Positions 1 through 51,009 of a stretch of 55,214 nt of DNA are shown here, one piece after another. This DNA comes from Girardia tigrina (lineage: Eukaryota). The notes beneath the pieces are model-generated. The model had not been told where the DNA came from and made no database searches. It worked only from the letters and a program-made list of their open reading frames with translations. Position 1 is the stretch's first letter, and each line of letters starts with the position of its first letter. A program made the translations under genes and the position numbers. The DNA lies in assembly GCA_001938485.1 (NCBI GenBank), contig MQRK01227422.1, positions 1 to 55,214 of the forward strand, in the 5' to 3' direction.

Positions 1-867
1 TTTGCATAATAATAAATTTATTAGGATAAAAAAACTCCAACAGGCAAACACGGTAAGTCAGTAATTTATATTTTTAATTTAGTGTCAATATTTTCTATCG
101 ATTTATTTTTTGTATTCAATTGCTGAATTATTATTAGTTTGCATTAGAATCTTGATAACATTTTTGAACATCAGCTTCTGTGATTTAGAATAAAGAAAAT
201 ACGATTCTTTATTCACTGTCGTAGAGATAATGATCAAGTTTATAAATTTGGTTCAGCTACTCATTTTCTTCAACATTGAATGCAACATCAGATCCAGCTN
301 TTATCTTTGTAATGTTTCTTCTTAATGTCAATTAAAGAACTCCATGAAATATCTGAATAGTTTGAAATAATAAATATTTGTAGACAATAAAGAGGTGTTC
401 CATTAATACAACAACTTTTCAAAACTAGATTTTTCTTTTCCGTTTTTGTTTTGTTCATCACGTATTCATAATGTATAACCTTGTTCACACAGCGAATGTC
501 AGGGTATAGTGATGTCCCCAAACACATGCTCGACACACCGGGACATCAAATCAATGACATTAATTTTTCTAATCATTTATCATCTAACTTAATTGTCAAT
601 AATCTAGTCTTTATAAATAGAAATCCTTTTTTTTTTAACTCGAATATTAAAATGAGTATTCTTTCATTAAAAGATACTTAGTCTCATCGTACAAAAAAGA
701 ATCACAACATAAATCCATTATATATCACATTCATCGCACGCAGGAAAACTTATGTACAAAAAAAACAACTAATGAAACTAAGACTTTGTACAATAGTAAA
801 TTGAAAGAAACACAAAGGTCAAAAGACATACAAACAAAACAGTCATGCAGTGTCAGTAAGTAGGGCA

Positions 868-3800
868 CTACACTTTGCATAATTTTTTAAGAATTTCCTG
901 TAATAGTTCGTTAAACCTAAAAAGCTTTTCAAATGGTGAACTGCATTTCTCTATAATATCTTTTTCTTCATAATTTCGAATAATATCGTCCAGTTTTTCC
1001 TCGAAATGTTTTGGTTGTCGGCAAGGTTTCACCAAAACTGGTTCTCCATGCGTTTCGATCTTGTTTTTTGTCAGTAACGTCCTTCCAATATCCCATTTGT
1101 CAGCCATAAATATTTAATTAAATTCTGTTAAAAGTTTCATTAGTTGGTTGTCAACTTTGTTTTCAAAGAGCTCTGTTATTCTCCTCAGTCTATCCTCGTC
1201 AGATGGATTGTCTGGTATTACCAATAACTCATTAGTATTTGATGGTTCTCTCTTTAGCTTAATCCTGAATTTGTTCAAGAAATCTATTCTTGCAATCATT
1301 TAAGGATCTATATCTTTGACCACAAAGAATTCCACTGTTTTCTACATTCTTCTAATTATCACTTTAAGTTGAAAAATACCATAGTTTATAAGTTCTGAAT
1401 CATTCACACAATGTATTCGTCTTTTAATTTCTTTGATCTTGACATCTTTCATATCTTTAATTATCTCTGCTTTAATAACGTACCCCCTGTATCTAACAGG
1501 CATTTGACATATTTATTTTTATACAGAACTCTATACTTGTTCGTCCTTTCAATTCTTTATAATTTATGTTAAACGTTGATAATATCAGTAAATCTTCAGC
1601 ATTCTTTTTATCTTTTTCTCATTTTCTATATTCATACTAGCACATATTTTATTGTCTTCTTTATGTTCATTATCTAATCTCCAGAGGAATATTTTCAAAC
1701 GCATCATCAAATATGCAATCACAAACACATTCATACATACAATCAATCATACATCTACATTGAGTTCCTATTGTAGCACACTGATCACTTCTCCCTGTGA
1801 TCGTGCATACTCGTTTCCCTGATTATACCTGAATTTTCTGTTACCCATGGGATATTCCAGTCTTTTGCCATCTTCTCCTCAATACGCTCCTTCAGAATAG
1901 TCCCCTTTCTAGAGTCTTATCTTATATACAATTCATCATCTAGTTCCTCCAGTTCTACTACTGGGTATTTCCTATTCGTGTATATTGGCCGTTCTCTAAA
2001 TCGTTGATTCGAGTAATTTTGCCTATTATTTCATCAATTATTTCCATTATCCCTTATCCATTGATAACACTCCCTAAACCTATTAGGGTTTTCATAAAAC
2101 TGTGTTCTTAAATGCATTTTTCTATTACAATGACTACTATTCACGTTTGGGCACTCTCATCTAACATGCCCTTCTTCGTTACATGCCAAACAGGTAATGA
2201 TGGTGCAAGAGCGGGCGCAGCGATTTTGTGGCTGCGGCACGCCGGCGACGGGGAGCGAACATCTGGTCGGGGGGTCACATTTAAAATTTTCACCTCGAGA
2301 CTCGGATTAATGACGATCGTATCGACTCTCCGTTTGACGACCGCACATTGACGAATCGCGTCATCGATTTCCCGCGAGTTATTCGATCGATTTTCTGTGA
2401 ATTCAATTTCGACTTTCTGTTTCTGCTTTAAATTGATTAAAACTGGATCGGGAAAAAAGAGCGATCCTTGGATGAGTCTATCGACGACAATCGACTTCCA
2501 TAGAAAGCGAAATGCGAACAAACAACCGATCGGCTGTCGGAGATCGGTGCGATAACACAACCAACCGCAATCGATTAATTCTCTCACAATTGCGTGATCG
2601 ATTTCGGAATTTTTGATGCAATTAATCGAACAAAAAGGAACTCTCAAAATCGACAACAAATAATCGGAATTGCTCTTGGAAATCTCCCTCCACTTGGTCA
2701 AAGAAATCGGGTGGAAGTCATTGCCAAATTCATTTTCAAATTCATTCTTCATTTAAAAATATTAACACAACAAAAATATTTATTTCCCTTTAAAAATCGC
2801 CAAAATAATTACAAATTGATCGATTAAAACAATCGATAAAATTTTTTTTCCTCAAAATCAGCAATTTAATAAAAGTTCAAAAGCTCAATTTACTCAAAGA
2901 GCAATTAACACACGCATGATATTTAATCGATTATTAATAATATTGAAAAAAAAAGAAAAACCAATACTAAAAAGTGTCATTTGATATTGCCGATTTTTGA
3001 AGAAAACAAAGATTTAAANNNNNNNNNNNNNNNNNNNNNNNNNNNNNNNNNNNNNNNNNNNNNNNNNNNNNNNNNNNNNNNNNNNNNNNNNNNNNNNNNN
3101 NNNTTGTTGATTTAATCACCTGATTTTCTTATCTATCGCACCCCCTTTTTACGATCAAACAATGGGGATATGCATTGATTTCAGAAGATAATTAACGAGA
3201 GATCGAGCGATTGTTTCGTGATGATCGACTGAAATCGTTGATAAATCGCAATTAGAAACTATTTCCAACATAATTCGTTCGGAAATCGATTGAGTTTTTG
3301 TAGGAGTTTCTGATGTCGATAAATTCAACAGCGTTCAAAATTCTCGTGTGATACCATTGTTTATCGGAATTATTTAAAAAATTTCGATATTTGATTTATT
3401 TAAAATCGTGAAACAGGTAATTTTTCGCTCTTTAATTTCTTCTTGTTTCTTGTTCTTTGAATTTCTCGTTCTGTGGTCTTGGTGTTCTTTTTATATTTTC
3501 TACTGTTCTCCATTCATTTTCTTTTTTTGTTTCATATGCCGCTACAGGAGCGTTTCTTTTCTTTTTATTATATTCGAACATTCCCGTTTGAATGTCTTCA
3601 ATCTCTTCAGATTTCTTGAAACCTCTGACAGCTATTTCTTTCAGCATGTTCTCATCATCTATCATATTAGCGTAGACCAAATTCGATAGTTCTTTTTTAT
3701 ACAACTTTTTCTCAATTAGCTTTTCAATAATTTAATCAGCCTTTCTAAATACTATTGTTTGATCGCTGGATCCAATTCTCATTTCTACCAGTTCTTTCAT

Positions 3801-4190
3801 TAGATCCAGGATAGATTTTTCCTTTGAAAACACTGATCTTAGTTTCTCTTCACATATTTCACCTGCGCTGCTTCATATTTTATTATGACATCCGGAGTCA
3901 TATATGGTGTTGCTAATAAGATTTTCCTCTCCTCTGAAAATCCTATTATCTTCGCATACCTGTTAAAGCTCGTTATGAATGCCTCAACTTTTGTCTCTGA
4001 TCCATCAAATATCTCCGGACCTCTAATGTTCGGAATCACGCGGTCTTGTATCACCATATTAAGAACACCAACATGGGTTTTCGAACTTTTATTTTCAATA
4101 CAATTTGAATTACTTTTTGGAAATCTCTCAGCCAAGCTGAGAGATGGTAATTCGACATCTCTCGTCATTCGACATCGTAATTCGACTTCG
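868..4190 (-). mobile_element. Decayed Ty3/Gypsy LTR retrotransposon (gag, protease region, start of RT), interrupted by an insertion at 2199-3410
   Basis: ORFs 3839-4168 (PEIFDGSETKVEAFITSFNRYAK, gag N-terminus) and 3432-3704. Manual translation of ~2095-2198 gives a zinc knuckle (TCLACNEEGHVR*EC). ORF 868-1107 (WDIGRT..IETHGEPV..P.RQP.HFEEK..IIEKCSSP) is a typical Gypsy pre-RT segment. Confidence 0.85.
2199..3410 (-). pseudogene. Gene-like insert flanked by an 11-bp target-site duplication, inside Gypsy gag
   Basis: AAACAGGTAAT occurs at 2188-2198 and 3411-3421. Removing the insert and one copy restores gag (EIKERKITCLACNEEGH). The insert is CpG-rich, carries a ~185-codon minus-strand frame (2752 down to 2199), and contains an N gap. 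Confidence 0.7.
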
Positions 4191-6126
4191 TTCTAAATTG
4201 ATAAATTTTAGTTAATGTTTTTTAATAAACAATTATTCGAACAAATATTTCATTATTTTTAGATTTTATTTTTAAAGTTCTAATTTTGTAATTTTAATAA
4301 TAATTTTATCTACGTATTAATTTTATTTAAAAAAAGGATTTTATGTAAAGAAAGAACACTTATTTAATTCAAAACTTAGTTAAAAGTTATTTACTTTATT
4401 TAAATTTTTAATATTAAAATTTGAAACGATTTAATATTTTTAAAGTTTTATAAATATCTTATGCTGTACTTTAAAATACAAATTAAACTTGAATAATTAT
4501 TCATCGTGAACATCCAAAATATCAATTTTCCATCTGGGTGGGAGAAACACATTTCCAAATACTAAACTCAACATACCAATTTCAACATACCAAATTTAAA
4601 ATATTCCTCACGTATACGATTCGAGTTTTTTTGGTAAATATCATCTTTAGATCTTACTTTATTAGTTAATTTTTTTCGAGACTGTAACTATGTCGGTAAC
4701 AATGACTAAAATATAAAAAAATATTACAGTTACTTACCAAAGTTAATTTTCATGGATTAAATCCATGGATTTAATCATGGATTAAGTGGTAAAATAACAA
4801 GAGACATACCTAGGGACAGCGACTTCAGCAAAACAGTCGTTTAAATAAAATTTGGTAGTCCTTTTAGAAAAGGTTGTATTTGTCTTTAATATTCGACTAA
4901 AAGCATTAAGTGGTTAATCACATTAATCAGGAGCTATTACATTTTAATAAATACAGATTACCTTGAAATCTATCCATATTTCGCAGATCATGTTAAAGTA
5001 AAGTCGATTTTAAATTGGTCAGTCTGAAATTCTCTGTAATATTTTACGGTAATATTTAAACAGGTTTTCATATAACATATATTGTTCACATAAAAATATT
5101 TTAGTATGAGACCAACCTGATTTTTATTAGATATTTTTACTCGGTCTTTCAGGAAAATTTTGATTTAATTCATTAAAATTATTTTTTATTTATTTATATT
5201 TGAATAATTTATAAACCAATTATTTAAAATAAATTATTTTTTAACAAATAACCATAATCTGACATTGTAATTATTATGATTCTATAATGTTTGATTCAAG
5301 ATTATGATTCATAAATTTACATAAAAGTTTATTAAACTTTTGCTATTTAAAATTTATCTCTGCCATTTTCTAATTTTGTTAAAGAAATATTTAGATTATT
5401 TTATATTTAATTTATAACAAAATTATCATTTTCAAAATAATTCCGTAAAAATATTTAATCAAACTTTAATTTCTTACGAACTTATTTCTTTCTACTTTAT
5501 AAATTTTACCACGTTTTTTTTGTTTTTATGTTACTTAATTCGTATTTTAAAACCTTTAGTAATTATTTTCCTGTTTAAATATATCAACTTTAGTTTTAAA
5601 ATATATTTTTTAACGTTTTTTATTATTTAATTTATTTAATTTTATTAATTAATTAATTATTTAATTTTGTTGGATTTTTAAAAAATCCTTTTTTACTTAT
5701 TTTTAGTTTTATAGACTTTATGTATTTTTTATGTTTTATGTAATACATCGTTAAACTTTTAAATTAAAGAATTTTTTATATTATTTAGCGAATATAAAAT
5801 TCTAATCAACTCCTCATAGTAATTATTATAAATTAATAATAAATGAAAATTTTAGATAAAAGTTTATTTAAAATTATTTAAATCTTTTTTTTTTAATTTA
5901 TAAATTTAAATTCATTGTATATATTTATATAATTATTATATTTTAGTTCCATATATTTGGTTTTCTACAGAAAAAAGAAAATAATATCAAATAAATCACC
6001 AATTAAATAATACTTCATATTATAATCCAATCAAATTCATTTTATTTTATTTTATTTTTAAAAAGAAATTTTCAAATTGACTAAATATTAAAAATTTTGT
6101 TTTGTTTATTTTCTAGCACGAAAAGA

Positions 6127-6982
6127 ATGAAAAGAAAAGAAACGGAAAGTAAATTGTCAAATAAAAAATGTGAAGTAAATACAATTGGGGTGATTGATAA
6201 AAATGCTTTTAACTTATTTTGTGAAATAAGTTCTATAAGAGGTATGCATAAGATCACAAAAGCTCCTACAGTTTTTCTAAAGATTCTTTGGATTGCTTTT
6301 GTGCTGTGTATGACAACAATGTTGTTCCTGGTAACAGGATTGTTAATAAAAGATTATTTAAATTATTATACGGCATGGCATGTCCGAACGAAGTTTGATG
6401 ATGATTCTGAATTTCCAGCTATAACTTTATGTTCCCACAATCCTTTTTCGCTTCACGCCAACGAACTTTGGAAGAAACCTAACGCATTTTCTCCTAACTT
6501 GTTTCGAGAAAGATTAAAGAAGATGGTCATTGATCAAGTAAAGAATTCGAATACAACAAACGAAATGACATTTTTAATGTTTCATGATAAAATTGAAAAT
6601 TATTATTCAAATATAGATTACGAGTATGCTTTTAATATAAGTCATGGTTTCGAAATGCTGAAATACTGTGCAATCGTCTTGGAGGGGTCATTAGTTATGA
6701 CTACAAATTGTGACACCGAAAGTCCAGATGTTATGGTAGAGAAAAAAATATTTTCCCATCATAAATTCTTCAATTGTTGGACATTGCAAAAGAAGTTTAA
6801 TCACAATTCAACAATTTCTACTTTGATAATCTTGGTGTCTCTTACTCCCGCCGCAGATATACCGGAATTGAAGAATGCTTTTCTGATGGACATTTTAGAA
6901 AGAGGAGAAGGATTAAAGTTGGTTATACATGAACCGAATTCGTATCCGGAAATCGAGGAAGAAGGAATAGATGTTCAACCAG
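6127..6982 (+). CDS. DEG/ENaC (amiloride-sensitive / ASIC-like sodium channel) subunit, first large coding exon, 3' partial
   Basis: Hallmarks in ORF 6097-7005: pre-TM1 FCEISSIRG (HG-motif region), TM1 (ILWIAFVLCMTTMLFLVTGLLI), FPAITLCSHNP, FNCWT and GLKLVIHEPNSYP..EGIDVQPG. There is an acceptor ttttctAG at ~6116, an ATG at 6127 and a donor CAG|GT at 6982/6983. Confidence 0.93.
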
Positions 6983-7612
6983 GTTGTTCAGTCCATAAAT
7001 TTTAATAATATTTATGGAAATTTATTAAATTTTAATGTCTTATTTTTTAAATATTACAAATTTTACAATTTTTTTTATCAAAACAATTATTTGAAAATAT
7101 TAAAATTTATTAATTTAAATTAATTAATTCGTAGTGAATAAATTTTTTTTAAATACAAACATAAAATTATTTATTTTTTTTATATTGAAAATAATGTGTT
7201 TTAAAATAATTATAATATAATAATAAATAATAAATATATAATAAATAATAACAAATATTATATCAATTATTTTTTTAGAGATTTTTTACTGTTGACAACA
7301 ATTAAATATATAATAGTGTTTTTACAAAAGAAATCATTTCATTTTAAAATAGAAAAAAAATAGAAGAACAATAAAAAATTGTAAAACAAATCAAATTATT
7401 ATTGATACTAATTATTTTTTTACAATTTTTCTTTTTAATATTTTAAATGAAATTAAGAAATAATTTCCAATTATTAAAAAAAATAAAATAATCTTTACAT
7501 ATTTAAAAACATTTTAGCCTTCACTATTTAAAATAATTATATTTTTTAATGTTTTAAATATTTTTTGGCAATGCCTAAAAATAATTTATTTTAATAGTAT
7601 AGTTATTTGTTA

Positions 7613-11580: not shown

Positions 11581-11646
11581 TTTATTTACCAAATTGAAAT
11601 ATGACGTCCACTCTTTTTTTGTTCATTTGGATCTAAAAACCATTTA

Positions 11647-13261
11647 CCCTAAAGTTCCGAGTATAACCCGCACCCCGTGAATAACCCGCAGTTCGCTGTT
11701 TTTTTAAATGGCACTTTTTCCTTTGTATAACCCGCACCCCGTGTATAACCCGCACCCTTTAAATAACACCAATAATATTTGGGATGTAAAAATAAATAAC
11801 CCGTTTATTTCTTTATTNNNNNNNNNNNNNNNNNNNNNNNNNNNNNNNNNNNNNNNNNNNNNNNNNNNNNNNNNNNNNNNNNNNNNNNNNNNNNNNNNNN
11901 NNNNNNNNNNNNNNNNNNNNNNNNNNNNNNNNNNNNNNNNNNNNNNNNNNNNNNNNNNNNNNNNNNNNNNNNNNNNNNNNNNNNNNNNNNNNNNNNNNNN
12001 NNNNNNNNNNNNNNNNNNNNNNNNNNNNNNNNNNNNNNNNNNNNNNNNNNNNNNNNNNNNNNNNNNNNNNNNNNNNNNNNNNNNNNNNNNNNNNNNNNNN
12101 NNNNNNNNNNNNNNNNNNNNNNNNNNNNNNNNNNNNNNNNNNNNNNNNNNNNNNNNNNNNNNNNNNNNNNNNNNNNNNNNNNNNNNNNNNNNNNNNNNNN
12201 NNNNNNNNNNNNNNNNNNNNNNNNNNNNNNNNNNNNNNNNNNNNNNNNNNNNNNNNNNNNNNNNNNNNNNNNNNNNNNNNNNNNNNNNNNNNNNNNNNNN
12301 NNNNNNNNNNNNNNNNNNNNNNNNNNNNNNNNNNNNNNNNNNNNNNNNNNNNNNNNNNNNNNNNNNNNNNNNNNNNNNNNNNNNNNNNNNNNNNNNNNNN
12401 NNNNNNNNNNNNNNNNNNNNNNNNNNNNNNNNNNNNNNNNNNNNNNNNNNNNNNNNNNNNNNNNNNNNNNNNNNNNNNNNNNNNNNNNNNNNNNNNNNNN
12501 NNNNNNNNNNNNNNNNNNNNNNNNNNNNNNNNNNNNNNNNNNNNNNNNNNNNNNNNNNNNNNNNNNNNNNNNNNNNNNNNNNNNNNNNNNNNNNNNNNNN
12601 NNNNNNNNNNNNNNNNNNNNNNNNNNNNNNNNNNNNNNNNNNNNNNNNNNNNNNNNNNNNNNNNNNNNNNNNNNNNNNNNNNNNNNNNNNNNNNNNNNNN
12701 NNNNNNNNNNNNNNNNNNNNNNNNNNNNNNNNNNNNNNNNNNNNNCGGATTGACAAAATTGCTTCAACCGTTGGATATTTCTGTAAATAGAAGTTTCAAA
12801 TTAAAAATTAGAGAAGAGTGGGAGAAATGGATGGTAAATGGGTTTCATTCATTTACCAAATCCGGAAAGATCAAAAAAGCCTCGTGTTCAACAGTCTGTG
12901 AATGGATATTACTGGCATTCAATTCAATTACAAAGGATTGTATTATCAATGGATTTAAAAAGGCAGGTATTCTTAATGATGATGAAGAAAACACTTGCAA
13001 TATTGAAGATGATCTTGAGGCTTCTTCCCAGGAAGATGAACTTGTCCATTTTGATGTTCCCGAGGCATTTCTAAAAATATTGGATGAACATTTNNNNNNN
13101 NNNNNNNNNNNNNNNNNNNNNNNNNNNNNNNNNNNNNTTTTTTTTTAATTTTATTAACTTTTAAATACCTAAAGTTCCGTGTATAACCCGCAGTATATCT
13201 TTTTCAAAAAAATTCACTTTTTCCTTTGTATAACCCGCGGGTTATACACGGAACTTTAGGG
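11647..13261 (+). mobile_element. pogo/Tigger-family (Tc1/mariner superfamily) DNA transposon
   Basis: TIR CCCTAAAGTTCCG(A/T)GTATAACCCGC at both ends, TA at 11645-46 and 13262-63, and subterminal GTATAACCCGC repeats. ORF 12750-13093 (LQPLDISVNRSFK...EWEKWM...FKKAGI) is the C-terminus of a pogo DDE domain. The middle of the element is an N gap. Confidence 0.93.
12750..13093 (+). CDS. pogo-type DDE transposase, C-terminal fragment (bounded by gaps)
   Basis: QPLD motif followed by the typical pogo C-terminal helices and an acidic tail. Confidence 0.85.
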
Positions 13262-13539
13262 TAGTAATTATATATTTGGGTCTGAGTATATTAGAGTATA
13301 TATGAGTCATTATACATAACCAAAATGTATAATTTATGATCAATAATCATTGATTATATATGTTTGAATGATGAATTTATTGATAATAATTGTTAATTTT
13401 TTATGGGAGCAGTGAACAGTAATTTATTGTAAAAAACAGCTTTCAGTACCATTACGTTTTCCTTTCAAAACTTTTATTTTAAATTTTTTATTTGGATAAA
13501 TTTATACGATATTGCGTAAAATGACATAACAAATTATCA

Positions 13540-19439: not shown

Positions 19440-20665
19440 TCGCTGAATGATTTGACATTTACTTATATTCATTAGCAATCTGATGTCTATTGAGTACCTA
19501 ATAAATATTATTCATCTCTTTATCAAATTATTCTATATAACGTTAAGAGAACAGAAAAATATATCTCAATTCTCTTTTCATTACAGTTATAAAGTCTATA
19601 AAGTTATGAAAAATCAACCTCAGGTTGTTTATCTGCTTCATAGTGTTGCATTGCTTTCTGTAGCTTATCTGCATCGCCTTGAGAACCTGCTCCACTTTCG
19701 GTGAGATTCTTCTTTGTATTACTTTCAGCATAACCTTGATGAGTGCCTTGTCATACTTATTGTTCTAAATTCGCTGCACATTTTGCTATATCCATTTTTT
19801 GAAATTGGAATGAGGAAAGATTCAGTCCATTGATAAAGAAAAACTTTTGTGTTTTAAATTTTTTTGTATATTGAGTGGGAAATTGTCACTGTATATTCGC
19901 CTCCATTCCGGATTAGTTCTGCACTAATATTGTCTATTTCTGGGGCTTTGTTCATATTCAAACCGTTTATGATAGCCTTTATCTTTGATCTTATAATTTT
20001 GCATTCCTGATCTTCATCATCTTTCTTTGTTTCACTATCTTCGACATCCGCTATGAAGCCATATTGTTTACTGAAATATTCCTTCAAACTTTGAGCGATT
20101 TCTGTACTCCATGTATTATGTTTCCATAATAATCATCAATTATCTTTCTTTGTACTCCTTATTGGTTTGTCATTTTCTTAAGTATCTTAAGTGCTTCTCT
20201 AGAATTGTTCATTTCAAAACTGCTATCTATCAATATTGCATACTTTTCCATCCAATCCTTTTTGGTTTTCCTCGTTAAACTCCGATTATCCTTTTTGGTC
20301 TTCGTGTATTCTTGTATCTTCTCCTTGTCGTAATTTCTCTTGCTTTTCAATTGACATCATCTGTCACAGTAGTTCAGAACTTCTCACTTAATCCATAGTT
20401 TCTTCGTTTTTTCCCTAAACCTTCTCGGTTGTATTTGTGATAATGTTTGTGAAATCTTCCAAGAGTTTTTTTGTGGTTGCTGATTCTTGAATAGCGAAAG
20501 GTGGCAAATTTCAATCATATGTCACTCTGAATTTTTTTTCTAATTTTATTATTCTTCAGTTTCTTTAGGTCGAAGAATGTTCTTCCATGTTTTGTTCTGG
20601 TCATTGTGGAAAGCTTTAGTTTGAAAGTTTTCATGCCAAGATACAGATTGATTCCAGTCTCTGGT
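19440..20665 (-). mobile_element. RTE-clade LINE fragment (linker and N-terminal RT)
   Basis: ORFs 20159-20350, 19854-20087 (NKAPEIDNISAELIRNGG) and 19543-19731 (KVIQRRISPKVEQVL). Collinear with and homologous to the copy at 33.1-35.8 kb. Confidence 0.9.
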
Positions 20666-22890: not shown

Positions 22891-23612
22891 CTTTTACTTC
22901 AAAAATAGTTTGCCTTTATCGATTTTGTGTTGTTGATTTTAAATCTGCATTTGGAATTGCCTATCACGTCCCATTGAAGAGGAATTTTCGTTTTCCAGAT
23001 TGTGAAGGACATGTCCATTCTTTAAATTTTTGAAATAATTAATTTTTATAAATAATCTCTAAAATAAGGAAATATTTCAAATCAAAAGTTTTCTAAACAG
23101 TTATAACTAAAAAATATCTTTAATTAATTTTTCAAAGTTATTTTCATAAAAAAATAAATTTTAATTGTTTTGCATTTATTTTAAAAGTTATTCTGAAGAA
23201 TAACTTTATGAAATTTTTGTTGTCAGAGATGTAATAAAAAAGATAATTTTAAATTTAAAAGTCAGTCTGCCAATTAAAATTCGATAAATAATGAATAAAG
23301 AAATATATATATAGAAACTGCCATTAAAAATTTTATAATTAATGAATCGTAAGCAAATAATAATAAATTTAAATATTGCTTAAATTAAATATTTTTGTAT
23401 TTTAAATTCGTAAATTGTATTTCAAAAATGTTGACATGTAAAACAAATGAAACAAATAAATAGTTAAAATAATTCTAGATAATGAAATAGTTTTTTAAAA
23501 GAAATTGAAATATTGATAATAAATAAAACGTTAAACTCTTTTTTTTTGTTAATTTGGTTAAAATAAATTTTGCTGATTTAATACTGATTTTAAATTAAAT
23601 TTTATCAAATAA

Positions 23613-24015
23613 TAACGGATAACATGAAATAGTAGGTGGACATGAAATAGTAGGTGTAATGAAGTTTTCAAAAAATTTTCCACCTACTATTAAAATAGTA
23701 GGTGGAATCAAATAGTAGGTGTATCGTTTTTAAAGCAATTTATTTAACATGATGTGTATGGTGAACGTTTTGTAAAAAAGTATTTGTCGGAATCCCAAAA
23801 AGAAACTGATCACAGTGATAGTGAAGAAATATTAAATATCTATGATGAATAAATTCTTATTTTTCCAGTTTAATTCTTATTTATTTTTCAAGTTTAAGAC
23901 AAGTTCAAAACAAAAGCACCAAATAGTAGGTGTAAACCAATATTGGGCGCCTTTTCAATTTTTTTCCACCTACTATTAAAATAGTAGGTGTCCTACTATT
24001 TCATGTTATCCGTTA
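23613..24015. mobile_element. MITE, copy 1 (TA-flanked; TIR ACGGATAACATGAAATAGTAGG)
   Basis: Perfect terminal inverted repeat, multiple AAATAGTAGGTG subterminal units, and a near-identical copy at 46602-47014. Confidence 0.92.
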
Positions 24016-26956: not shown

Positions 26957-27532
26957 TATGCCGAATTTGTGCAATTGCCGAATTCACTAATTATATGAAA
27001 AATATTCAATTTAATATGAAATTTTCTAAATTAAAAATGAAAGATTATGTACTTATTATGAAAAATATCAATTTAATATGAAAATGGGTATTTAATATGA
27101 ATTAATATTAATTTTACATGAAAAAATCAATATTTTATGAAAAAAATTATTTTAATATAAAAAAATGAATTTAATACGAAAAATATGTATTTAATATGAA
27201 AAATATAAATATATTATGAATAAAAATCTTAATTTATTATGCAAAATAGACTCCAAATGTTAAATTTTATTTATAGTTAATTATACTTCTTCCTTGGTGG
27301 TAAGCTGAATTGCAAACATTTGTATTTTAAAAATTTTTTCTTATTAAATTTATATTTATCATATTAAATTGATATTATTTTCGTTTTAAACACAATTTTC
27401 TTATTAAATCGATATTTTTTCAAATTAAATATTAATATCAATTTCACAATTGAATTAAAAAAATTTTTAAAAAATTGCCAAGTTCGTGAATTGAGTTCGT
27501 GAATTTGTCAATTACACAAATTCGACATAACA
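26954..27532. mobile_element. MITE with ~35-bp TIRs and an AT-rich, internally repetitive body
   Basis: TGTTATGCCGAATTTGTGCAATTGCCGAATTCAC versus GTGAATTTGTCAATTACACAAATTCGACATAACA. The TTTAATATGAAA repeats switch orientation mid-element. A solo end is at ~39024-39059. Confidence 0.8.
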
Positions 27533-28102
27533 TAATACAAAACCGCTCTGTTTATCTTTATTACTTAAACAAAAACTGATTTTTCCAGAACAATATAGTT
27601 ATTTTTTTTCAATTACAGTTTTAAAACAACTTAATATATATATTAACAACATCACAATTTGAATGCAAACATTTATTTACAACACAAACAGATTCTTCAC
27701 AACAATTTTCAGTGGTCATCCTTCTTTGATTAATATAGTTTTTGATTAAAAATTTAAATATGAAAAAATTAATGAATGGGNNNNNNNNNNNNNNNNNNNN
27801 NNNNNNNNNNNNNNNNNNNNNNNNNNNNNNNNNNNNNNNNNNNNNNNNNNNNNNNNNNNNNNNNNNNNNNNNNNNNTTTCATTAGATTCAAATAATTAAT
27901 CAAATAACATATCAATCCCATTTGGGTAGGAGAGTCACAAATCTAAACAGCATACAAACAACAAACTTACAACATTCACAATTATCCCTCACAATATATT
28001 AAGTTTTTTTAAAACTGTAATTGAAAAAAAATAACTATGTTGTTCTGGAAAAATCAGTTTTTGTTTAAGTAATAAAGATAAACAGAGTGGTTTTGTATTA
28101 TG
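27531..28102. repeat. ~110-bp inverted repeat pair flanking an N gap
   Basis: 27531-~27640 (CATAATACAAAACCGCTCTGTTTATC...) is the near-perfect reverse complement of ~27995-28102. Confidence 0.85.
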
Positions 28103-31200: not shown

Positions 31201-33103
31201 TGGACAAAGTACATTAATCTCTTGTTTGGCTTTTGCAAAACTCGCAAATTGAAAAAAAAGGTTGTGAAATTAATGATTTTTCATTATCGCTTTTTCTGAA
31301 TTTTTCCGAAAGCAATTGATTCATGAAAATGTTTCATCATAGTAAGCGTTGCCATGTAAGTTACGTTCACATTGTTTGCCATATTCAAACTATAATTCAT
31401 TATTATTAAATTTTTAATTACTTTTAAAATTAATTTGATTAAAGATTTTTTAATGGAAAAACAATTTAAAATACTTTATAAATAAATATTATTGCACAAT
31501 TAAAGACAAAACATTTTCGTTTTTGAATTCTTGGATATATATATTTTTCGGTATTTCGCAACTTGTATTTTTAAGAAATTTATATTGAAACATTTTTAAT
31601 ATCAAAAAATGAAATCTAAATTAAAAAAAGTTAATTACTATTATGTATGAAAGATTAAATTTGTAAGTCTAATTTAACGGAATTATTTTAAAATTAAAAA
31701 TTTGTCTCTAATTGACGTTTATGTCTTTAATCATGATTTTTTATCAATTCTTTCACCGATAAAAAATCGATGCAAAATATTTTAAATCGACAGATCGCGA
31801 TACCCGTTATGAAGGCGGTCGGCCTGTAAAACTCTATGAAAGTCTTGATCCGTATGGGATCATTAAAATTTATATGTTCATTGTTGAGAAAGGTTCGACT
31901 TAAAAGGAAAATAATAATCTGATAGGAAATGAATTGTGTTAGTTACATCGATATCCGTAACGCATGTTAAATGAATTTGTTAATTATAAAAATTGTTTAT
32001 TTTTATGATTGTTGTTATTATTTAGAAAACATGTAAATTTTTACACATTTGTTTTTTTTACATGAAAAAAATATGTTGTTTAAAATATATAAAAAAACGG
32101 TAATGCAGTAGATAATTATTAAATCAATAAAAAATATTCAGTCGTTATCGTTATTTAGTCGTTAATATTTATTTACCGCTATATCTAAAACGATAACAAT
32201 CATAAACGAAATTTCAATTAATTTTTCCTCTTCAATTCCTAATTTAATAATCATTTCGTCGATCTCTAATATTCAAAATAATTTTGTTTTAGTACCAAAA
32301 CTTTTTTTTAACTTCTTTTAATTTCAATGAATTTTAAATTTATTTTATTTATCCCCGAAATATTTTTTTGTTGAAATAAAATATTTATTCTCAATGACTT
32401 TTAATATTAATTTGAAAATTATAATTATTCTACTTCCATTATAAATTTGTTAAAAATAAAAAAAATATTTAATTGAACATTAATTTTTAAATATTTAATT
32501 TAATTAGTGAAATAAGAATTAACTATCTCCTACTGTAATATCTCCTGTTGATTTTATTGTGAATAAGTTGATGTATGACACTTGATACCGCCACAATTTA
32601 TGCCGACACTTAATCCCTGTAACAGTTAATACATGTGACAGATAATCCCGCGATATTTAATATCAATATATTTAAATTCGCAGAAAAGCACCAAAAAAAA
32701 TGAAATTTATAATAAAAAATGAAAATAATTATTGAATTTATTTTAATCTAATAAGGAAATTTACAAAAAAAATAAAAATATATTATATATTAAAATATAA
32801 GGAACTAAATAAGTATAATATAAGAACTAAATCAAATATTAGGTACTAAATAAGTTAATACAAAATTTTTATAATATCAAAATTGAAATTTATCTCCCAA
32901 AATAATTTTAAAAACAAATGATAATGAATTTTGATATAAAGAGTTTTTAAAATAAAAAACAAACTTAATAAGTTTAGAATAAAATACTATAAAAAAAATT
33001 TGAAATATAAATATTAAAATTAACAATTTAAAAAAAGTAATAAATAAATAATAAAATGAAGTAACAATAATAATAAATTTTATAATACATTACTTTTACG
33101 TAT

Positions 33104-35796
33104 CTCTCCACAACTAAAGCTCTCCACAAAAACCAAAACAAAACATCATAGAGCGCTTTTCGATCTTAAGCAACTGAAGGATATTAAAATTAGGGACAAA
33201 TTTCAGAGTGAACTGTCATCAAAATCCGTCCCTTGCTGCTACTATAAGACCAGCAGCCACAAAAGATCTGTGACGAGTTCACAAACATTATCCCAGATAC
33301 TACCGAAAGCATTCTGGGAAAAAGACGAAAGACGAAGAAACCATGGGTTAATAGAAAGGTATTGTAATGCTGTGATAGACGACGTCAACTGAGAAGCAAA
33401 AGAAATAACGGCGAAGAGTATATAAAAGATTACAGGAAGGTGAACAAGGAAGTTCAGAGACTACTGAGGAAGGCCAAAGAGGATTGGGCGAAGAACAAGC
33501 AAAATTGATAGAAAGTAGTTTTGAAATAAACAATTCTAGAGAAGCATCCAAGACAATTAAGAAACTGACCGAGTCAGGAAGAAGACAAATAAATGTAATT
33601 GAAGATCAAGATGGAAACTTACTTACAAAAAGTACAGAGATGGAAAGATTACTGTTGCGAATTATACAACTTTAAAGCAGATGTCAACAGGAGCGTTATC
33701 TCACAAGATGTTGAAACAAATGGAGATGACGAAGTTCGTGAATGCGAAATTTTAAGATCTGAAGTAGAGGCTGCCATAAAAGGTTTGAAGAGGAACAAAA
33801 GCCCAGGAATGAACAACATCAGCGCGGAACTAATTCAGAATTGAAGGCGATAATACAGTGACTATTCTCCATGTAATAAGCAACAAAATTTTAAAAAGTG
33901 GAGTTTGGCCCTCACAATGGAGTGAATATATCCTCATTCCAATACCGAAGAAAGCAAATAGTTAAAAGTGCAGCGACTTTAGAACGATTAGTTTGATCAG
34001 TCACGCATCAAAGGTTATGTTGAAAGTGTTACAAAGAAGATACACACCGAAAGTGGAGCAAGTTCTTAGCGAGATGCAGGCAGGCTTCAGAAGGGACCGC
34101 AGCACTATGGTGCAGATAACCAACTTAAGACTGATTTGTGAGAAAACAAGAGACCCCAAACGAATAATTTGCATAACTTTATAGATTTCAAAAAAGCCTT
34201 TGATATGATGTGACATGAAGCACTATGGCACACAATGAATAAACACAACATAGGAAAACATATCACGAAAATTATTAAGAGCCTTTATGAAGACGCAAAG
34301 ACAAAAGTGTTGACTAGTTTAGCGACTGGTTTAAATCATCAGTAGGAGTAAAACAAGGTTGCATTCTTTCACCAACATTGTTCAACCTTTTTCTTGAGAG
34401 AATTGTTATGGAAGCTATGAGGGGTTAATTTAAATTTTCATCTCGCCAGAATAATTTATTATTTTTTTAATTTAAATGTTAAAATATTTTAATGTTAATA
34501 TGCTTTTAAATATTTTAAAAAATTAAAAATGATATAATAAAAGAAAATCATAAAAAATTAAATATCTATTTAAAAATAAAAAATATCTTTTTAATGTATC
34601 TATTAAATATCTTAAAATTAAAAATGATAAGAAAACCATTAAATATTAAATATTTATTTATAAATAAAAATGTTTTTACAGTCATAACAATTTATATATG
34701 TTAATATAAGTTATGAAACGATTTTAAATAAATTTTAAAATAAATTTTTAGTTTTAATGTGAAATGTATTTAATAAATTTGCAAGATTTTAAAAATTGAA
34801 TAGAAAAGAATTTAATAGATTAATATGTTGCGAGATAATTAAATTAACAGACAGATTTGTTTAAATATGTGAATTGTTGTTATATTAATAAATTTTGGTG
34901 TTAAAAATGAATTCAGATATTGATGTTGCAACCACTACTCACAGAAACAATATAGGATGTTGGAATAAGCTGCGGAGGAACAAAAATAACCGACCTACTA
35001 TTTGCTGATGACATAGACCTAATTGGCAAAGAGGAGGCAGAGATTCAGGAACATACGAACAGATTACACAAAGCGTCAAACAAATTTGGAATGAAAATCA
35101 ACAGACAAAAAAGCAAAGTAATTGTTTCAGGAAACCATAACAACGAGGTTAATCTAGAGATTTTCATTGAAGGGGAGAAGCTGGAACAAGTTAAGAGTTT
35201 CAAATATTTAGGCTATATTATCAAAGAGAATGGGGGAAGCGAAGAAGAAATCAGAAGCCGGATTGGTATATCAACAAGCGCAATGATTAAACTTAGCACA
35301 GTTTTTAACCTCAAAAAATCCATCTCAAAAGCATATTAAAGATCACTAAGGCTATTGTCTGGGCAACACTCCTCTATGGATGCTAGAGTTGGACAATAAA
35401 TCAGAAGAGTATGGATAGACTTAAGGCGTTTGAAATGAAGTGCTACAGGAGAATGCTGAAGATCACGTGGAAAGAAAAGAAGACAAATGACTTTGTGTTT
35501 GGAGGAGAGTGACAGTAATACTAGGTAAAAGACCGGAATCAATAGAAGAGAGCATCAAGAGATGGAAGCTAAAATTCTACGGTCATCAAATAAAAAACAA
35601 GCACTAGCAAAGGTTATGATTGAGGGAAAAGTGGAAGGAGAAAGACAAAGAGGCAATGGATGGACTATTTAAAAGAATGAACTGGACTGAGTATGGAATA
35701 TCTGAGAAAAGAAACTACAAATAGAAAGATGTGGCGAAGGCTTGTTTATAATTGGGTGCACCCACGGCCCAACGGCTAAGGTCAAAAGAAGAAGAC
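33104..35796 (+). mobile_element. 5'-truncated RTE-clade LINE with an 8-bp TSD, split by an AT-rich insertion
   Basis: TTACGTAT at 33096-33103 and 35797-35804, and a (GAA)n 3' tail. RT motifs KSPGMNNISAELI, ISHASKVML, QAGFR, DFKKAFD, GVKQGCILSPTLFN, LLFADD (35001-35012) and FKYLG. Many stops and frameshifts. Confidence 0.95.
34419..34940. mobile_element. AT-rich insertion within the RTE RT domain
   Basis: The RT reading frame stops at ..MEAM and resumes ..NNIG.GISCGG. The ends are weakly inverted (GAGGGGTT / AACCACTACTC). Confidence 0.6.
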
Positions 35797-36789
35797 TTAC
35801 GTATAAATGGTTTCAGCAAGAAAATGAAGTGTTCCTTTGAAATTCTTTAAAAAACTTGATTAAAAATATTTTATTTTGTTGTTATTAAATAAAAGTTTTT
35901 AAAATATCAACTTCTGATTTTTAAACTGCAAATTATTATGAAACTAACAGGAAACATTCAGCTTAAAAAAATAACTTGTCAAAAAAATATAAGTATACTT
36001 CGATATAGAAATAGCTACTTATAATTAAAGATCAAATGTTTGGAAATCAAGTACTTCAAAGAATGATTGAATCTGATCAAAGAATACAAATAATAATATA
36101 TTTGATTTATAAATAATATTATTATTTTTATTTATGTCAAATATATTGCGTCTATGTTTAATTTGTAATTTTACTTTCATAATTTGTAAGATAACATTTT
36201 AATATGTTCAAATTTAAATGTTAATATAAAAAATAAAGAATATAATAAAAATATTAAAATGAAACATATTTTGAAAATAATTTTTAGCTAAGTCTTCATT
36301 CGAATCAACATGCAACTCAAAAAAAATAAATAAAACGACCAATTACAATAATAAATAATTTAATCCTATTTCAATTTTGCATTTTTTAATATTTTTGAAT
36401 ATATATGAAATAATAGAGATAACGATAAATCTTCCATTTTTGTAACATACTTCATCGTAAATCATGTTACAACATCATTCAAGTTATATAACAATAATCT
36501 TCTGCTCTGCTTAAGAGACATTCCAAACAAACTATTCAAATTTCCTCTATAACCGTTAGAGTAAATTGAAATGTTTGATTTGGTACATTTGCTTTATCAT
36601 TTTATGTCATATAATTTTTTTATTTCTTATTTTCATGTATTGTAACAATAAAAACATAAATAATCTACTTAAATAATATTATCTAATTATTAATATATAT
36701 ATATATATATATATGTATAATTTATTTAGTCTTGTGAACGCTAAATTGATATTTTTAGAAATTGATTACTTCAGAAGTATTAGATTTTA

Positions 36790-38269: not shown

Positions 38270-38305
<36 letters not shown>

Positions 38306-38308
<3 letters not shown>

Positions 38309-38946
38309 TAACAAACACCATTTTAAAAGTTTTTTATTTCTCAAAATATGTTTCGCCATTACGGCATCATCAGTTGTGAAGTAAATTTCAAATTACAAGT
38401 CATTTATATGGCACATTGACTATTACACAATTAATCTTTTTTTAATTAATATTAAAAGATTTTAACATGATTGGATAATTCACTTTGAACATTTAAGTAT
38501 GTTTAAAATGCTTTATTAATAATGCCTCAGTGACTATCATCTCATGATATTCCTACTATTCCTACTCATTTGGGTTTGTTCAGCTATTCTAGTGCGGAGA
38601 TGACGATTTGTTTCTCCAATGTACAAGGATTCACACTTGTGACATTTAAATTGATATACTAGATTAGCTTGGACACCCGATGGAGTTTTTGATTTATTTG
38701 AGAAATATCTCGATAGTTTATTAGTTATAAAGATCACCCGCAAATTAAAACCTGAAGGAACCTTTTTCATCAGACCTTTCCTCAAATCAGACGCACCTTC
38801 AGAAAATGGTAATTTTAAATTTATTGTTTTTATTACATTACTACTATCATTATTTATAATGTTTTCATTTTTATTATTAGATGATGCCGTAATGGCGAAA
38901 CATGTTTTGAGAAATAAAAAACTTTTAAAATGGCGTTTGTTATTCA
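38306..38946 (-). mobile_element. 5'-truncated Penelope-like element: GIY-YIG endonuclease end, pLTR and an inverted partial pLTR, inserted in (TA)n
   Basis: ORF 38537-38947 contains NLVYQFKCHKCESLYIGETNRHLRTRIAEQ. 38306-38371 and 38880-38946 are inverted copies of each other. Flanked by TA runs. Confidence 0.92.
38338..38380 (-). ncRNA. Minimal type I hammerhead ribozyme (Penelope pLTR)
   Basis: Minus strand reads UUCACAA-CUGAUGA-UGCCGUAAUGGC-GAAAC-AUAUU-UUGAGAA, giving the catalytic core, stem II and stem I (one mismatch). The inverted copy retains the palindromic ACAUGU in stem III. Confidence 0.85.
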
Positions 38947-41628: not shown

Positions 41629-42139
41629 TATTTAATTTTAATTATTCGTTCCCCTTCCCTAGATAATGATCGTCCAATTGACATACATACTTGTCATTCT
41701 ATCTCATCAACGGCGCTTTCTCCAGTCGATTTATCGTCAGGAAAAATAGTATCAAGTCCAATTTTTAATATTTATTGTTGTGTTCACTAAATCGGATCAT
41801 CAGCAGCAACCAATTAAGAGTTTTTTTTCAGGTGATATGTAATTCAATTTTTTGATTTTTAATTTTGAAAATATTTCTTAATTGGATTTGCGACCCCTGA
41901 AATTTTTGAGATTAGAAAAATTCAAACGAGCATTACAAAAAATTCTAATACAATTAACAATTAAAAAAATTATAATTATCGAAAAAACTTTAAATGAATT
42001 AATATTGGTAATTGTTTTAATAAATACATTTTTTTATCGCGGTCTTTAAATTTGTTTTCTTTCGTAATTAAATATTTGAAACCATTCTAATAATAAGAAG
42101 GCCACTGTTTCAACAAGCGCGATTTTTAAAGAAGTCGAG

Positions 42140-42945
42140 ATGGACAACTCTCAGTTCTCCGAAATGCTTGGAGCGGTCGATAAATTTTTTTCTCACCGAG
42201 AAATCACCGAAGACGACATCAAATCGCTTCAGGAGAATATTAACACGAATAATATTTTTTCAAATCATTCCAATGAGAATTTCATCAGAAATTGTCAAAT
42301 CTCTCTTCCGATTCTCCATCAACCGACGTTTCCATTCACCGCGAATTCCGCGAAAAGGTTGTCGTATTTAACGAATGGCAGTCCGATAGTCGGGACGGAG
42401 TTTTTGTCCGATTGCTGCTCGTCGACATCGATCGTTTCTTCCTCAATCAATAACGGCCACAATTCCAATAACAATCGAAAAATAATCACAGCCAGATCGA
42501 ATTCGAAATATTTGACGTCGAAAAAGGAAAAGCCGAAGAACTATCGGAATTGTCGTCGTTCCCGGTGAATTGCTATATGAATATCGGAGTGGTGGATTTG
42601 TCGTTGAGTTTCTCGGGGCCTCTACCAATCGCTCCGATTAACACCGGTAACCACAGCAACAACAACAATCAGAATCCAGTGAAATTCGTGTCCAATAACA
42701 ACAACAACTCGATAATCACCGCCAATAATCATTCGCTCATTCAAAAATCGTCGAATAACAACAGCAACTATCAGAACAACAATCACCACCAAAACGGATT
42801 CTGTCACGCGGGCGGCAAATCAAACGTGATCGGGACGGACGCGATCATTTACGCGACCGATATCGGTGACTCTGGTCACATCATTTATTATCGCGAATCG
42901 TGCCTCTTTGCTAACGCTCCTCATCGATACACACCTCTTGATTAG
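42140..42945 (+). CDS. Probable exon or gene of unknown function, Asn/Ser-rich, with one apparent frameshift
   Basis: ORFs 42140-42568 and 42550-42945 join if one A is added to the A5 run at 42478-42482 (..NNRKNNHSQIEFEIFDVEKGKAEELSELSSFPVNCY..). CpG-rich codons and no other disruption. Confidence 0.6.
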
Positions 42946-50945: not shown

Positions 50946-51009
50946 GTCGATTAAGAAATCAATGTTGTTGGTTTTGGGACCGGAATCTTCCGCTGGACTA
51001 CAGCCTATT

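Follow-up and report, generated by a model that had tools for sequence, protein, structure and literature searches.

The window, by which we mean the whole stretch of 55,214 nucleotides of Girardia tigrina DNA that was analyzed, contains a composite insert within the gag region of a Gypsy element (Table 1). The host Gypsy is decayed and is disrupted at many further places. A piece of its left flank matched the zf-CCHC knuckle (E 2.3e-4). The segment at 3422-4100 had no Pfam match and is presumed to be gag from its position. Similarly, we take the flanks to run in the order gag, DTG protease motif and RT/RNase H-like remnants.

Table 1. Features of the insert and of the Gypsy element around it (positions in the window)
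Feature	Position	Strand	Remark
Zinc knuckle, protease DTG motif near 1480-1500, RT/RNase H remnants; many stops and frameshifts	850..2187	-	Six-frame reading
Left copy of the 11-bp target duplication AAACAGGTAAT	2188..2198		Last T possibly element-derived
Fixed GC-rich 121-bp terminal module (tail, 3' end relative to cargo); inner edge CGATCG	2199..2319	-	High copy, common to different cargos
TEDC1-like host gene, 5' coding part, reading in frame into the tail	2320..2718	-	51-nt in-frame deletion near 2576-2582
AT-rich spacer: 5' UTR, intergenic DNA or another fragment	2719..2887		In family contigs X3 record 11 and X4 record 19
Segment matching the 3' end of an apparent second polyadenylated transcript	2888..3018	-	X4 record 20
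Assembly gap, 85 N	3019..3103		True size probably ~150 nt, from X3 record 12 and bin depths
Gene-like cargo; 59-codon open stretch at 3158-3334	3104..3359	-	99-100% covered by X3 record 13 and X8 record 28
Far end (head), ~45 bp common to higher-copy sequence	3360..3410	-	Deep contigs cover 3384-3388
Right copy of the 11-bp target duplication AAACAGGTAAT	3411..3421		First 5 nt (AAACA) also family sequence
Decayed Gypsy gag, upstream part	3422..4100	-	High depth in all four runs (X1, X3, X4, X8)

The sequence AAACAGGTAAT occurs exactly twice across the window, once at each border of the insert, and the match cannot be extended on either side. The left boundary of the insert is uncertain by 1 nt and the right one by 5 nt, which leaves 5-6 bp of unambiguous duplication within the 11-bp match. 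The T preceding the module (2198) was also seen in the metagenome locus L009 and in three X8 contigs with loose ends starting before 2198. Because 70 comparable pairs of 11-mers (at least three G/C, spacing 0.5-3 kb) make up the chance background in the window, an 11-bp repeat by itself is weak evidence. The left-flank sequence, however, is fused directly to 3412 in contigs from other Gypsy copies. Such empty-site loose ends were found in 14 contigs of X1 and in one contig each of X3 and X8, and among the joints listed, 11 of 15 skip the whole insert. The empty site comes from paralogous Gypsy copies, and it settles that the insertion is real. On the minus strand the right flank (ending in EIKERKITC) and the left flank (ITCLACNEEGH), each translated by itself, agree in frame around the repeat. 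The exact target-site duplication (TSD) that an earlier sequence-only reading of this DNA had noticed is borne out, as is the empty site that it had proposed to confirm in other Gypsy copies. The TSD is known from one family copy, that in the window, where 5-6 nt of the 11-bp match are also element sequence; none was found around L009.

The same reading had noticed neither poly(A) nor a terminal inverted repeat (TIR) in the insert, and we came to the same result. No poly(A) or tandem or simple repeat was found at either insert end. Compared end to end in inverted orientation, the insert scored 17; the null averaged 16.6 and 210 of 500 shuffles did as well. The best direct repeat between the ends was the TSD itself.

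A stop-free frame of 184 codons (2752-2201, minus strand) runs out of the insert. It had been described as a frame of ~185 codons without a stop and unrelated to transposable elements; the frame is present, but its last 40 codons belong to a high-copy mobile module. Judged by sequence comparison, the frame is a chimera of ~133 codons from a TEDC1-like host gene and the fixed 121-bp end. The window frame matched the protein P0002 (phmmer E 8.2e-14), which carries the Pfam domain TEDC1 (E 1e-11). The TEDC1-like part gave 34% in BLASTP with a 17-aa gap, and X4 record 18 aligned at ~89% over 2399-2718 with 51 additional nt. The window ORF alone had no Pfam match.

The module is identical to positions 277-397 of L009 at 117 of 121 bases, and the sequences on either side are unrelated. 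Its translation forms the end of P0001, P0003, P0004 and P0007-P0009, and a shorter form ends P0005. The outer end is identical to the base in the window, in L009 and in 7/7 tail-bearing proteins. The inner edge is identical in the window, in L009/P0001 and in three X8 contigs; the X8 loose ends comprise three contigs before 2198 and three behind 2319. At the junction with the module the cargo ends in GATA in the window, AAAC in L009 and CTCC in the X8 loose-end consensus. An exon-end AG is seen in none of the three, unlike a cargo joined by splicing. There is no second copy of the module within the window. Exact-pattern scans for it returned none in viral contigs and none in prokaryote genomes, 0 of 21 candidates for P0001 in viral contigs were confirmed, and no autonomous element with the 121-bp tail was found in the window or in the viral or prokaryote collections. 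The tail gave no RNA folding signal (z -0.95 to 0.18), and no lysine run follows it in any of the seven tail-bearing proteins. Rfam returned nothing on the insert at the gathering score (two chance matches, E 6.8 and 9.9), ARAGORN found no tRNA, and the insert thus shows no tRNA-, 7SL-, 5S- or snRNA-derived head of the kind that marks a classical SINE. The CUGANGA core of the hammerhead ribozyme, which is a feature of the Penelope terminal repeat, is absent from both strands of the insert and of L009.

No source was found for the spacer next to the TEDC1-like part; GC is 0.22 across 2750-3018. At 2888 the element lacks the final 13 nt and the A-run of an apparent second transcript. This transcript is represented by X4 record 20 (982 nt, depth 39.9, 7 mismatches, 3 gaps), whose loose end consists of nine T and 13 nt before 2888. 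Our guess is that X4 is an RNA run, and record 20 could be another element family instead of a host gene. Beyond the gap, the source of 3104-3359 was not found, with no match in Pfam and 0 of 19 candidates scored. At the far end, contig depth at 3384-3388 was 48.8 (X3), 65.9 (X4) and 77.3 (X8) as compared with 5-10 for cargo, the deep contigs extending over 32-43 bp of the bin. X3 record 13 and X8 record 28, which come from different studies, match to 3415 and are followed by four unmatched letters. These two family contigs, as judged from record lengths, extend 9 nt beyond 3410, and just the first five (AAACA) are common to the window. The window copy looks truncated at its far end with a 5-nt microhomology; truncation with microhomology is a pattern of target-primed reverse transcription (TPRT). 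Searching the window for the head pattern returned one extra match with three mismatches, which is near chance level. A spliced-leader origin of the head is unsupported: flatworm spliced leaders end in AUG, according to the relevant section of PMC12582326, and the common stretch stops short of a nearby ATG.

Could the insert be an assembly artefact, that is, a mis-join at the N gap or a collapsed repeat? The gap does lie inside the insert, and among the contigs listed none spans the whole insert or either outer junction of the window locus. However, X3 contigs that overlap one another cover 2276-2846, 2852-3018 and 3174-3415 with an identity of 96-100%, X3 record 8 contains the module-cargo junction, and X3 record 12, which is 449 nt long, enters the gap from 2852 and appears to bridge it. 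Bin depths imply that it continues to ~3236, which is where the estimate of the true gap size comes from. An exact duplication in frame with gag is also unexpected from a mis-join. An artefact is thus very improbable, including the mis-join at the gap that had been named beforehand as a possible source of error.

In public records the 121-bp end is joined to three further cargos, namely a beta-propeller gene piece, sideroflexin and PRC1. The four cargos share one module, with a constant 3' part and a variable 5' part. All four lie in sense with the tail at the 3' side. TEDC1, sideroflexin (profile 2-226) and PRC1 (profile 2-135) start at the protein N-terminus and read without an intron-sized break, a pattern biased to open frames in that the search yielding the other cargos was made at the protein level, through the single open frame of the tail. 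Such chimeric frames already sit in protein collections as proteins of 290-420 aa; P0004 and P0005 could derive from transcript assemblies, and P0006, one of five phmmer matches, was dropped for its repetitive frame. Five propeller-family records reach the tail and continue into five different sequences, so that chimeras amplify as families. The propeller cargo itself had no match in Pfam and nothing significant in PDB. In the Atlas it fell into generic beta-propeller clusters (up to 0.93), and a single-sequence AlphaFold model was unusable (pLDDT 29.6). Its resemblance to the Nup214 N-terminus is tentative. For sideroflexin and TEDC1, no solved-structure match was found.

The contig comparison covered four (X1, X3, X4 and X8) of 24 listed runs, and runs with a small share contributed no evidence. 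Contig depth does not equal copy number, and the X1 sums are inflated by overlapping contigs. In X3 the depth was 416 over the outer tail, ~172 over the inner tail, 49 over the head and 5-10 per cargo contig; the corresponding values in X8 were 343, ~141, 77 and 5-6. Depths over cargo ranged from 5 to 32 as compared with the above tail values. The order was reversed in X4, with the head at 65.9 and the tail at 13-21. Identity to transcript was ~89% for the inner cargo and ~92-95% for the outer cargo, and the greater divergence of the inner cargo fits sequential 5' accretion. In the metagenome scan, one of 11 loci, L009, was a true relative; the other ten were dropped as chance because their matches span 20-25 bases. 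In our own reading of its translation, L003 presumably resembles the end of a bacterial outer-membrane receptor gene. The flanks of L009 we take, on their motifs, to be Tc1-like on the left and Penelope-RT-like on the right, and its contig may be nested or chimeric. No far end common to the window and L009 was found.

The insert is therefore one copy of a multi-copy composite element that codes for nothing needed for mobility. It combines the 121-bp terminal module, which is fixed, with cargo derived from host genes and a common far end, and it entered the Gypsy gag with a target duplication. The module also carries the 5' parts of other host genes, and two chimeras at least, those with TEDC1 and with the beta-propeller, have multiplied. 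This revises the original interpretation, in which RTE machinery would have copied one host mRNA once, by internal priming. The host-gene cargo, the 11-bp duplication and an RTE-like element that is indeed present in the window speak for it, and the retrocopy idea holds to the extent that part of the insert is TEDC1-like. However, the 3' end is not TEDC1 sequence but the common module, which ends at the same base with at least three other cargos. The cargo is composite and is itself multi-copy, at odds with the assumption that the insert is not a high-copy element; L009 and P0001-P0009 contradict a one-off event. The window's RTE-like copy ends in an unrelated AAG-type repeat with no BLAST match to the insert or the module, and the insert ends lack a short tandem repeat. 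We thus give a one-off RTE retrocopy hardly any weight, while an RNA/TPRT route is still the most likely one.

Then, by what route would such an element spread? We favor, with a probability of about one half, a non-autonomous, 3'-anchored retroposon that packs host-gene 5' parts, in which new multi-copy hybrids probably spread via an RNA step. The element would move as RNA, and the module would serve as a 3' tail recognized by a stringent non-LTR or Penelope-type reverse transcriptase supplied by an autonomous partner other than the window's RTE copy. At a staggered nick, priming would begin exactly at the last base of the tail, giving a fixed end without poly(A). Synthesis would then proceed through the cargo and end by pairing of AAACA to the second target strand, a step that would generate the 11-bp duplication and a slightly truncated 5' end. 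New cargo might be joined to the upstream side of the tail in one of two ways: transcription of a host gene could read through into a tail that had inserted in its exon (5' transduction), or the template could be switched where synthesis pauses at a fixed site, the inner edge of the tail. Outer fragments would be added in repeated rounds, and microhomology deletions would shorten them.

The depth falling away from the tail fits 3'-anchored copying, whereas cut-and-paste predicts two equally abundant ends. The 9-nt run-on with five common nt fits TPRT truncation with microhomology. The same outer end and inner edge, the five different propeller flanks and the shorter tail of P0005 also count for a retroposon, as do the sense, N-terminal and uninterrupted cargos from a biased sample. 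Against it count the lack of poly(A) or of short repeats at the tail, although most LINE partners carry one or the other, the failure to find an autonomous tail-bearing element in the window or in the viral and prokaryote collections, the lone TSD, the absence of a folding signal and the reversed depth order in X4. The common head and the fixed inner edge would also be expected from a DNA transposon with asymmetric ends.

Such a transposon could be a non-TIR Pack-MULE, a non-autonomous Mutator-like element whose two ends differ. It would pick up genomic gene fragments in the course of gap repair, transpose by cut-and-paste and leave a 10-11 bp TSD. The precise outer end, the lack of poly(A), the several fragments with microhomology deletions and the common second end agree with it. 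The element also continues beyond the point where the second transcript appears to be polyadenylated and has no A-run there, as expected of genomic DNA. MULE TSDs measure 8-11 bp and some MULEs lack TIRs, among them the flatworm Curupira group with a 9-bp TSD (PMC6446971, Table 1), and multicopy Pack-MULEs are known from animals, as in Ssk-FB4 (PMC8277862). However, the family runs past 3410 (AAACA and four more nt), so that either the right end is not intact or the TSD is just 5-6 bp. In X3 and X8 the depth over the tail exceeds that over the head by a factor of 3-8, the four cargos of the biased sample showed no intron, and no transposase partner was seen. Overall we consider a Pack-MULE unlikely.

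An integrase-type insertion would place the element at 2198-3415, with a TG start, a CA end and a 5-bp TSD of GGTAA, as in a solo LTR or similar element with host gene pieces inside; the 11-bp match would be coincidental. TG...CA termini with a 4-6 bp TSD are the LTR signature. The T at 2198 is indeed common to L009 and three X8 contigs, AAACA at 3411-3415 is common to two family contigs, and the four extra letters might start an internal region. Nevertheless, a six-base chance match is required (p ~5e-4 from local composition, yet first readers notice long matches). The five propeller-family records, each on one contig, have five flanks at the TG end with no common polypurine-tract flank, and the two ends differ in depth. 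This route is accordingly improbable. It is more improbable still that the family is real and this copy was patched into a staggered double-strand break by microhomology-mediated templated repair. Microhomology is possible at both junctions (1 nt and 5 nt), but random repair would not place the left junction at the very base where it lies in all other copies seen. Flanks other than Gypsy around further copies led us to reject LTR-mediated retroposition within Gypsy RNA. Helitrons, which leave no TSD and have TC...CTRR ends, do not match an insert with a TSD and different ends.

The closest parallels are of several kinds. L1/mRNA chimeras are mostly in sense and come from transcript starts (PMC13174262), WEIRD-MGL chimeras of Magnaporthe arose by template switches at hot spots (PMC2104539), and SVA_F1 with MAST2 is a 5'-transduced subfamily founded by a chimera (PMC3287187). 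Like our insert, the LINE/mRNA chimeras in these accounts have a sense 5' part of a host transcript followed by a mobile 3' part that is constant, with a TSD on both sides; they can found a subfamily (SVA_F1) and have junction hot spots (MGL). Unlike them, the family here has a constant part of just 121 bp with a fixed inner edge, no poly(A) and no exon-end AG at the junction, and it involves several unrelated genes with at least two amplified chimeras. Pack-MULEs and the animal Pack-TIRs (Ssk-FB4, PMC8277862) resemble the insert as non-autonomous multi-copy carriers of host fragments with internal deletions and TSDs of 8-11 bp, whereas the insert has no TIR, ends of unequal depth and an apparently truncated far end. 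Non-TIR MULEs themselves are described, but gene-packing ones in animals are not in the relevant sections of PMC6446971 and PMC8277862. In Adineta vaga, host genes framed by Penelope pLTRs show that a short cis-acting terminal sequence suffices to move host genes in trans with a TSD, and poly(A) goes unmentioned in that part of the account (PMC3846280), like the poly(A)-less insert. Unlike these genes, the insert has no direct-repeat pLTR at both ends and no hammerhead core, and its family comprises many cargo types and amplified families as compared with the few single events covered there (PMC3846280). An RTE-clade retrocopy shares the TSD size and the lack of poly(A), but the insert differs in having no short-repeat 3' end, no similarity to the RTE end of the window and a separate fixed module. 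A search of published papers returned no description of a gene-packing family with the 121-bp tail.

Plant DNA transposons and Helitrons are well known to capture and amplify pieces of host genes on a large scale, which is, to our knowledge, rare in animals. A family that has neither TIR nor poly(A) and joins many cargos to a single short fixed end would give chimeric pseudogenes a new way to arise and gene fragments a new way to expand. Its chimeric copies can pass as genes in annotation and could feed small-RNA silencing of the parent genes TEDC1, PRC1 and sideroflexin. More tentatively, and with somewhat less than even chances, we suggest a gene-packing non-LTR retroposon system, an RNA-based animal counterpart of plant Pack-MULEs, in which the high-copy 121-nt tail licenses any fused 5' part of a host transcript. 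If so, many host genes would each give rise to a chimeric family that amplifies, in several cases with a reading frame that stays open across the tail, and a reverse transcriptase would have in the tail a natural cis-signal of minimal size for RNA-templated gene insertion. The family offers a clear genome-wide test of DNA versus RNA capture, and if the RNA route is true, the 121-nt tail and its partner enzyme would make a compact and directly testable RNA-templated insertion system.

The insert at 2199-3410 is one copy of a composite, multi-copy element that is non-autonomous: one of its ends is fixed, its host cargo varies, and the copy is flanked by a target duplication. The 11-mer AAACAGGTAAT is present at 2188-2198 and again at 3411-3421, with no third occurrence on either strand of the window. 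About this repeat, the minus-strand translations of the two flanks lie in a common frame (right, ...EIKERKITC; left, ITCLACNEEGH). The left piece matches the zinc knuckle zf-CCHC (E 2.3e-4) and is followed by what we take to be a DTG protease motif and then RT/RNase H-like remnants with many stops, so the host is a decayed Gypsy. Pairs of 11-mers with at least three G/C, spaced 0.5-3 kb apart, number 70 in the window, and an 11-bp repeat by itself is therefore not rare. The insertion is confirmed by the empty site in other Gypsy copies, in which the left-flank sequence runs straight into 3412 (contigs of public sequencing runs: X1 14, X3 1, X8 1); the whole insert is jumped by 11 of the 15 joints listed, with 24 further joints beyond these. 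That the insert is an assembly artefact is very improbable. The sequence-only reading had proposed an exact 11-bp TSD and an insert with neither TIR nor poly(A). The 11-bp repeat is exact, and the other two points hold: the inverted end-to-end score of the insert ends is 17 against a null mean of 16.6, the insert has no poly(A), and its ends carry no terminal tandem repeat.

The insert contains a frame of 184 codons (2752-2201, minus), which gave five matches at E <=0.001 in a search of 1.84 billion representatives. P0002 aligns with codons 19-146 at 34% identity with a single 17-aa gap, and has Pfam TEDC1 (E 1e-11); the window frame alone gave no Pfam match. P0003, P0004 and P0005 resemble the frame over its final 30-46 residues only, and P0006 was dropped as a repetitive chance match. 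Word-index searches added P0001 (one of 248 candidates) and found P0003 and P0004 again (two of three). The sequence upstream of the common stretch differs between these proteins: sideroflexin in P0004 (profile positions 2-226 of 319, E 4e-77), PRC1/MAP65 in P0005 (profile 2-135, E 1e-6; E 3e-4 to human PRC1), and in P0001 and P0003 a piece that is beta-propeller-like (Atlas scores up to 0.93). The resemblance of P0001, P0003, P0004 and P0005 to the window ends at the insert's left boundary. The frame is a chimera: what was first described as a non-TE frame of about 185 codons has a TEDC1-like part and ends in a module common to other cargos.

One metagenome scan returned 11 loci, of which one, L009, is a true relative. 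Its sequence is identical to 2199-2319, the 121-bp GC-rich tail, at 117 of 121 bases and unrelated to either side. Contigs of X8, a leaf-litter run, leave the window before 2198 (three) and behind 2319 (three), and both module edges are therefore fixed. In the P0001 cluster, four of five members reach the tail; these four and P0003 are 98-100% identical before the tail and continue into five different sequences after it, and the propeller-plus-tail chimera is therefore a recently amplified family, although at low coverage an assembly may attach arbitrary flanks to a repeat. P0003 has an internal deletion that breaks at the module edge. A 393-codon frame stays open through the tail in four near-identical records (P0001, P0007-P0009), with about 100 codons preceding the propeller part; the open frame could reflect recent amplification or selection. 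A 3-nt deletion at 2225 (depth 83/376 in X3, 112/244 in X8) and an X1 joint from 2296 to 2435 that omits 138 bases (depth 2948) suggest module subfamilies. At L009, what we take to be a decayed Penelope-type RT fragment (1490-1871, +) adjoins the 5' side of the cargo in opposite orientation after (AAT)n, and a presumably Tc1-like terminus (38-70) follows (TA)n on the tail side; the arrangement may stem from nested insertion or from a chimeric contig, or it may reflect a true connection with a Penelope partner.

The TEDC1 chimera is a family as well. Contigs of X3, a run of 105 million contig letters guessed to be DNA, tile the cargo at depth 5-10 and 93-100% identity, record 8 crossing the module-cargo junction, and the tail depth of 416 in this run is close to that of the Gypsy flanks (500-1,400), depth not being equal to copy number and serving for rank order only, among the rows listed. 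X4 record 19 is a near-identical element piece. X4 record 18, 89% identical, has 51 extra bases at 2576-2582, the length of the 17-aa gap to P0002. The family has therefore undergone an in-frame deletion, and this record is probably the parent transcript of the cargo. X4 record 20 matches 2888-3018 and starts with nine T and 13 other bases; it has the look of a second transcript, polyadenylated and in the same orientation, of which this would be the 3' end, but it may belong to a different element family. X3 record 12 runs into the assembly gap and, to judge by the bin depths, crosses it, the true gap being about 150 nt. The far end is common to other sequence too, since three runs each have a deeper contig at 3384-3388 (X3 48.8, X4 65.9, X8 77.3; 32-43 bp of the bin spanned). 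The proposal of a one-off retrocopy of one host mRNA, made by RTE machinery, gives way before this multi-copy insert and is now highly improbable. RTE-like copies do exist in the window; the one at 33060-35810 (RVT_1, E 1e-8) ends in an AAG-type repeat and has no sequence in common with the module.

The T at 2198 is common to L009 and three X8 contigs. X3 record 13 and X8 record 28 match through AAACA (3415), then have four unmatched letters, and end 31 bases past a private 1-nt indel at 3388. The simplest reading is that the family sequence continues past 3415 and the window copy stops short, 5 nt being common to element and target. The alternative, an integrase or LTR-type element that spans 2198-3415, has TG...CA termini and made a TSD of 5 bp, is improbable; it requires six further bases to match by chance (p about 5e-4).

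We favor retroposition, at a probability of about one half. Reverse transcription would be primed at the last base of the tail, and cargo would be acquired either through 5' transduction or when the template is switched at the module's fixed inner edge. This is suggested by the depth gradient from outer tail through inner tail and head to cargo (416, ~172, 49 and 5-10 in X3; 343, ~141, 77 and 5-6 in X8), the shorter tail of P0005, the far end truncated with microhomology, cargos in sense and from gene starts, and an inner cargo older than the outer one. Against it count the X4 head, deeper than the tail, an insert with neither poly(A) nor a repeat tail, the biased cargo sample, the single TSD with none found in L009, and the failure to find a partner with the tail in the window or the viral and prokaryote collections. 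Templated repair from a family member is still less probable than the integrase-type element. Splicing onto the tail is unlikely, as none of three junctions ends in AG.

The window is about 28% GC and is not depleted in CpG. This composition, a DEG/ENaC gene and the occurrence of the sequence in leaf-litter, biofilm and freshwater records, of which the leaf-litter run X8 was used here, suggest a free-living flatworm, presumably a planarian; the comparisons below with work on flatworms depend on this assignment.

Other features of the window
Feature	Position	Strand	Remarks
DEG/ENaC (ASC) channel gene exon	6085-7005	+	Pfam E 2e-25; looks like an ordinary host gene
DNA transposon remnant, presumably Pogo/Tigger-like by its translation	11640-13270		subterminal motifs recur around two N gaps
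RTE-like LINE copy, decayed	19611-20621	-	73% like the next copy over 1 kb
RTE-like LINE copy, decayed	33060-35810	+	AT-rich stretch of ~500 bp interrupts RT region
MITE-like pair, 405-415 bp, 88% alike	23611-24015, 46600-47014		a short motif forms inverted repeats at the ends and inside; TA or TAA apparently at flanks
109-bp inverted repeat, 97%	27531-28102		both sides of N gap 27781-27876; foldback element or assembly artefact
GIY-YIG (Penelope-like) fragment	38288-38983		E 0.018; beside (TA)n runs; 84-bp inverted duplication, 38288-38371 and 38880-38963
Gene-like region, CpG-rich, Asn-rich	42080-42945	+	two overlapping frames; no notable Pfam match in the one scanned
Second decayed Gypsy pol	48097-50958	-	pieces resembling protease, RT (E 3e-15) and integrase

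In its manner of working the element resembles L1-mRNA 5' chimeras (PMC13174262), SVA_F1 (PMC3287187) and the chimeras of Magnaporthe, in which switches occur at hot spots (PMC2104539), as passages of these papers describe them, but it is without their poly(A) and splice features. In outcome it resembles Pack-MULEs and Ssk-FB4 (PMC8277862, in part), differing in having no TIR. Flatworm non-TIR MULEs are listed with 9-bp TSDs in passages of PMC6446971 and PMC8293314. As an explanation of the insert, a non-TIR Pack-MULE is rather unlikely. Penelope pLTRs move host genes in trans (passages of PMC3846280), whereas the element has neither a pLTR pair nor a hammerhead core. Planarian genome papers report LINE/R2 and many unclassified repeats, and the passages of PMC11410931 and PMC10899757 do not describe such an element. 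Searches of the largely open-access literature, module sequence strings included, returned no description of it; Repbase and Dfam lay outside these searches, and the tail may already be catalogued as an unclassified repeat. We assign the element to none of these systems. Tentatively, and at lower odds than retroposition itself, it may represent a gene-packing non-LTR retroposon system in which a 121-nt tail would license the 5' parts of host transcripts fused to it.
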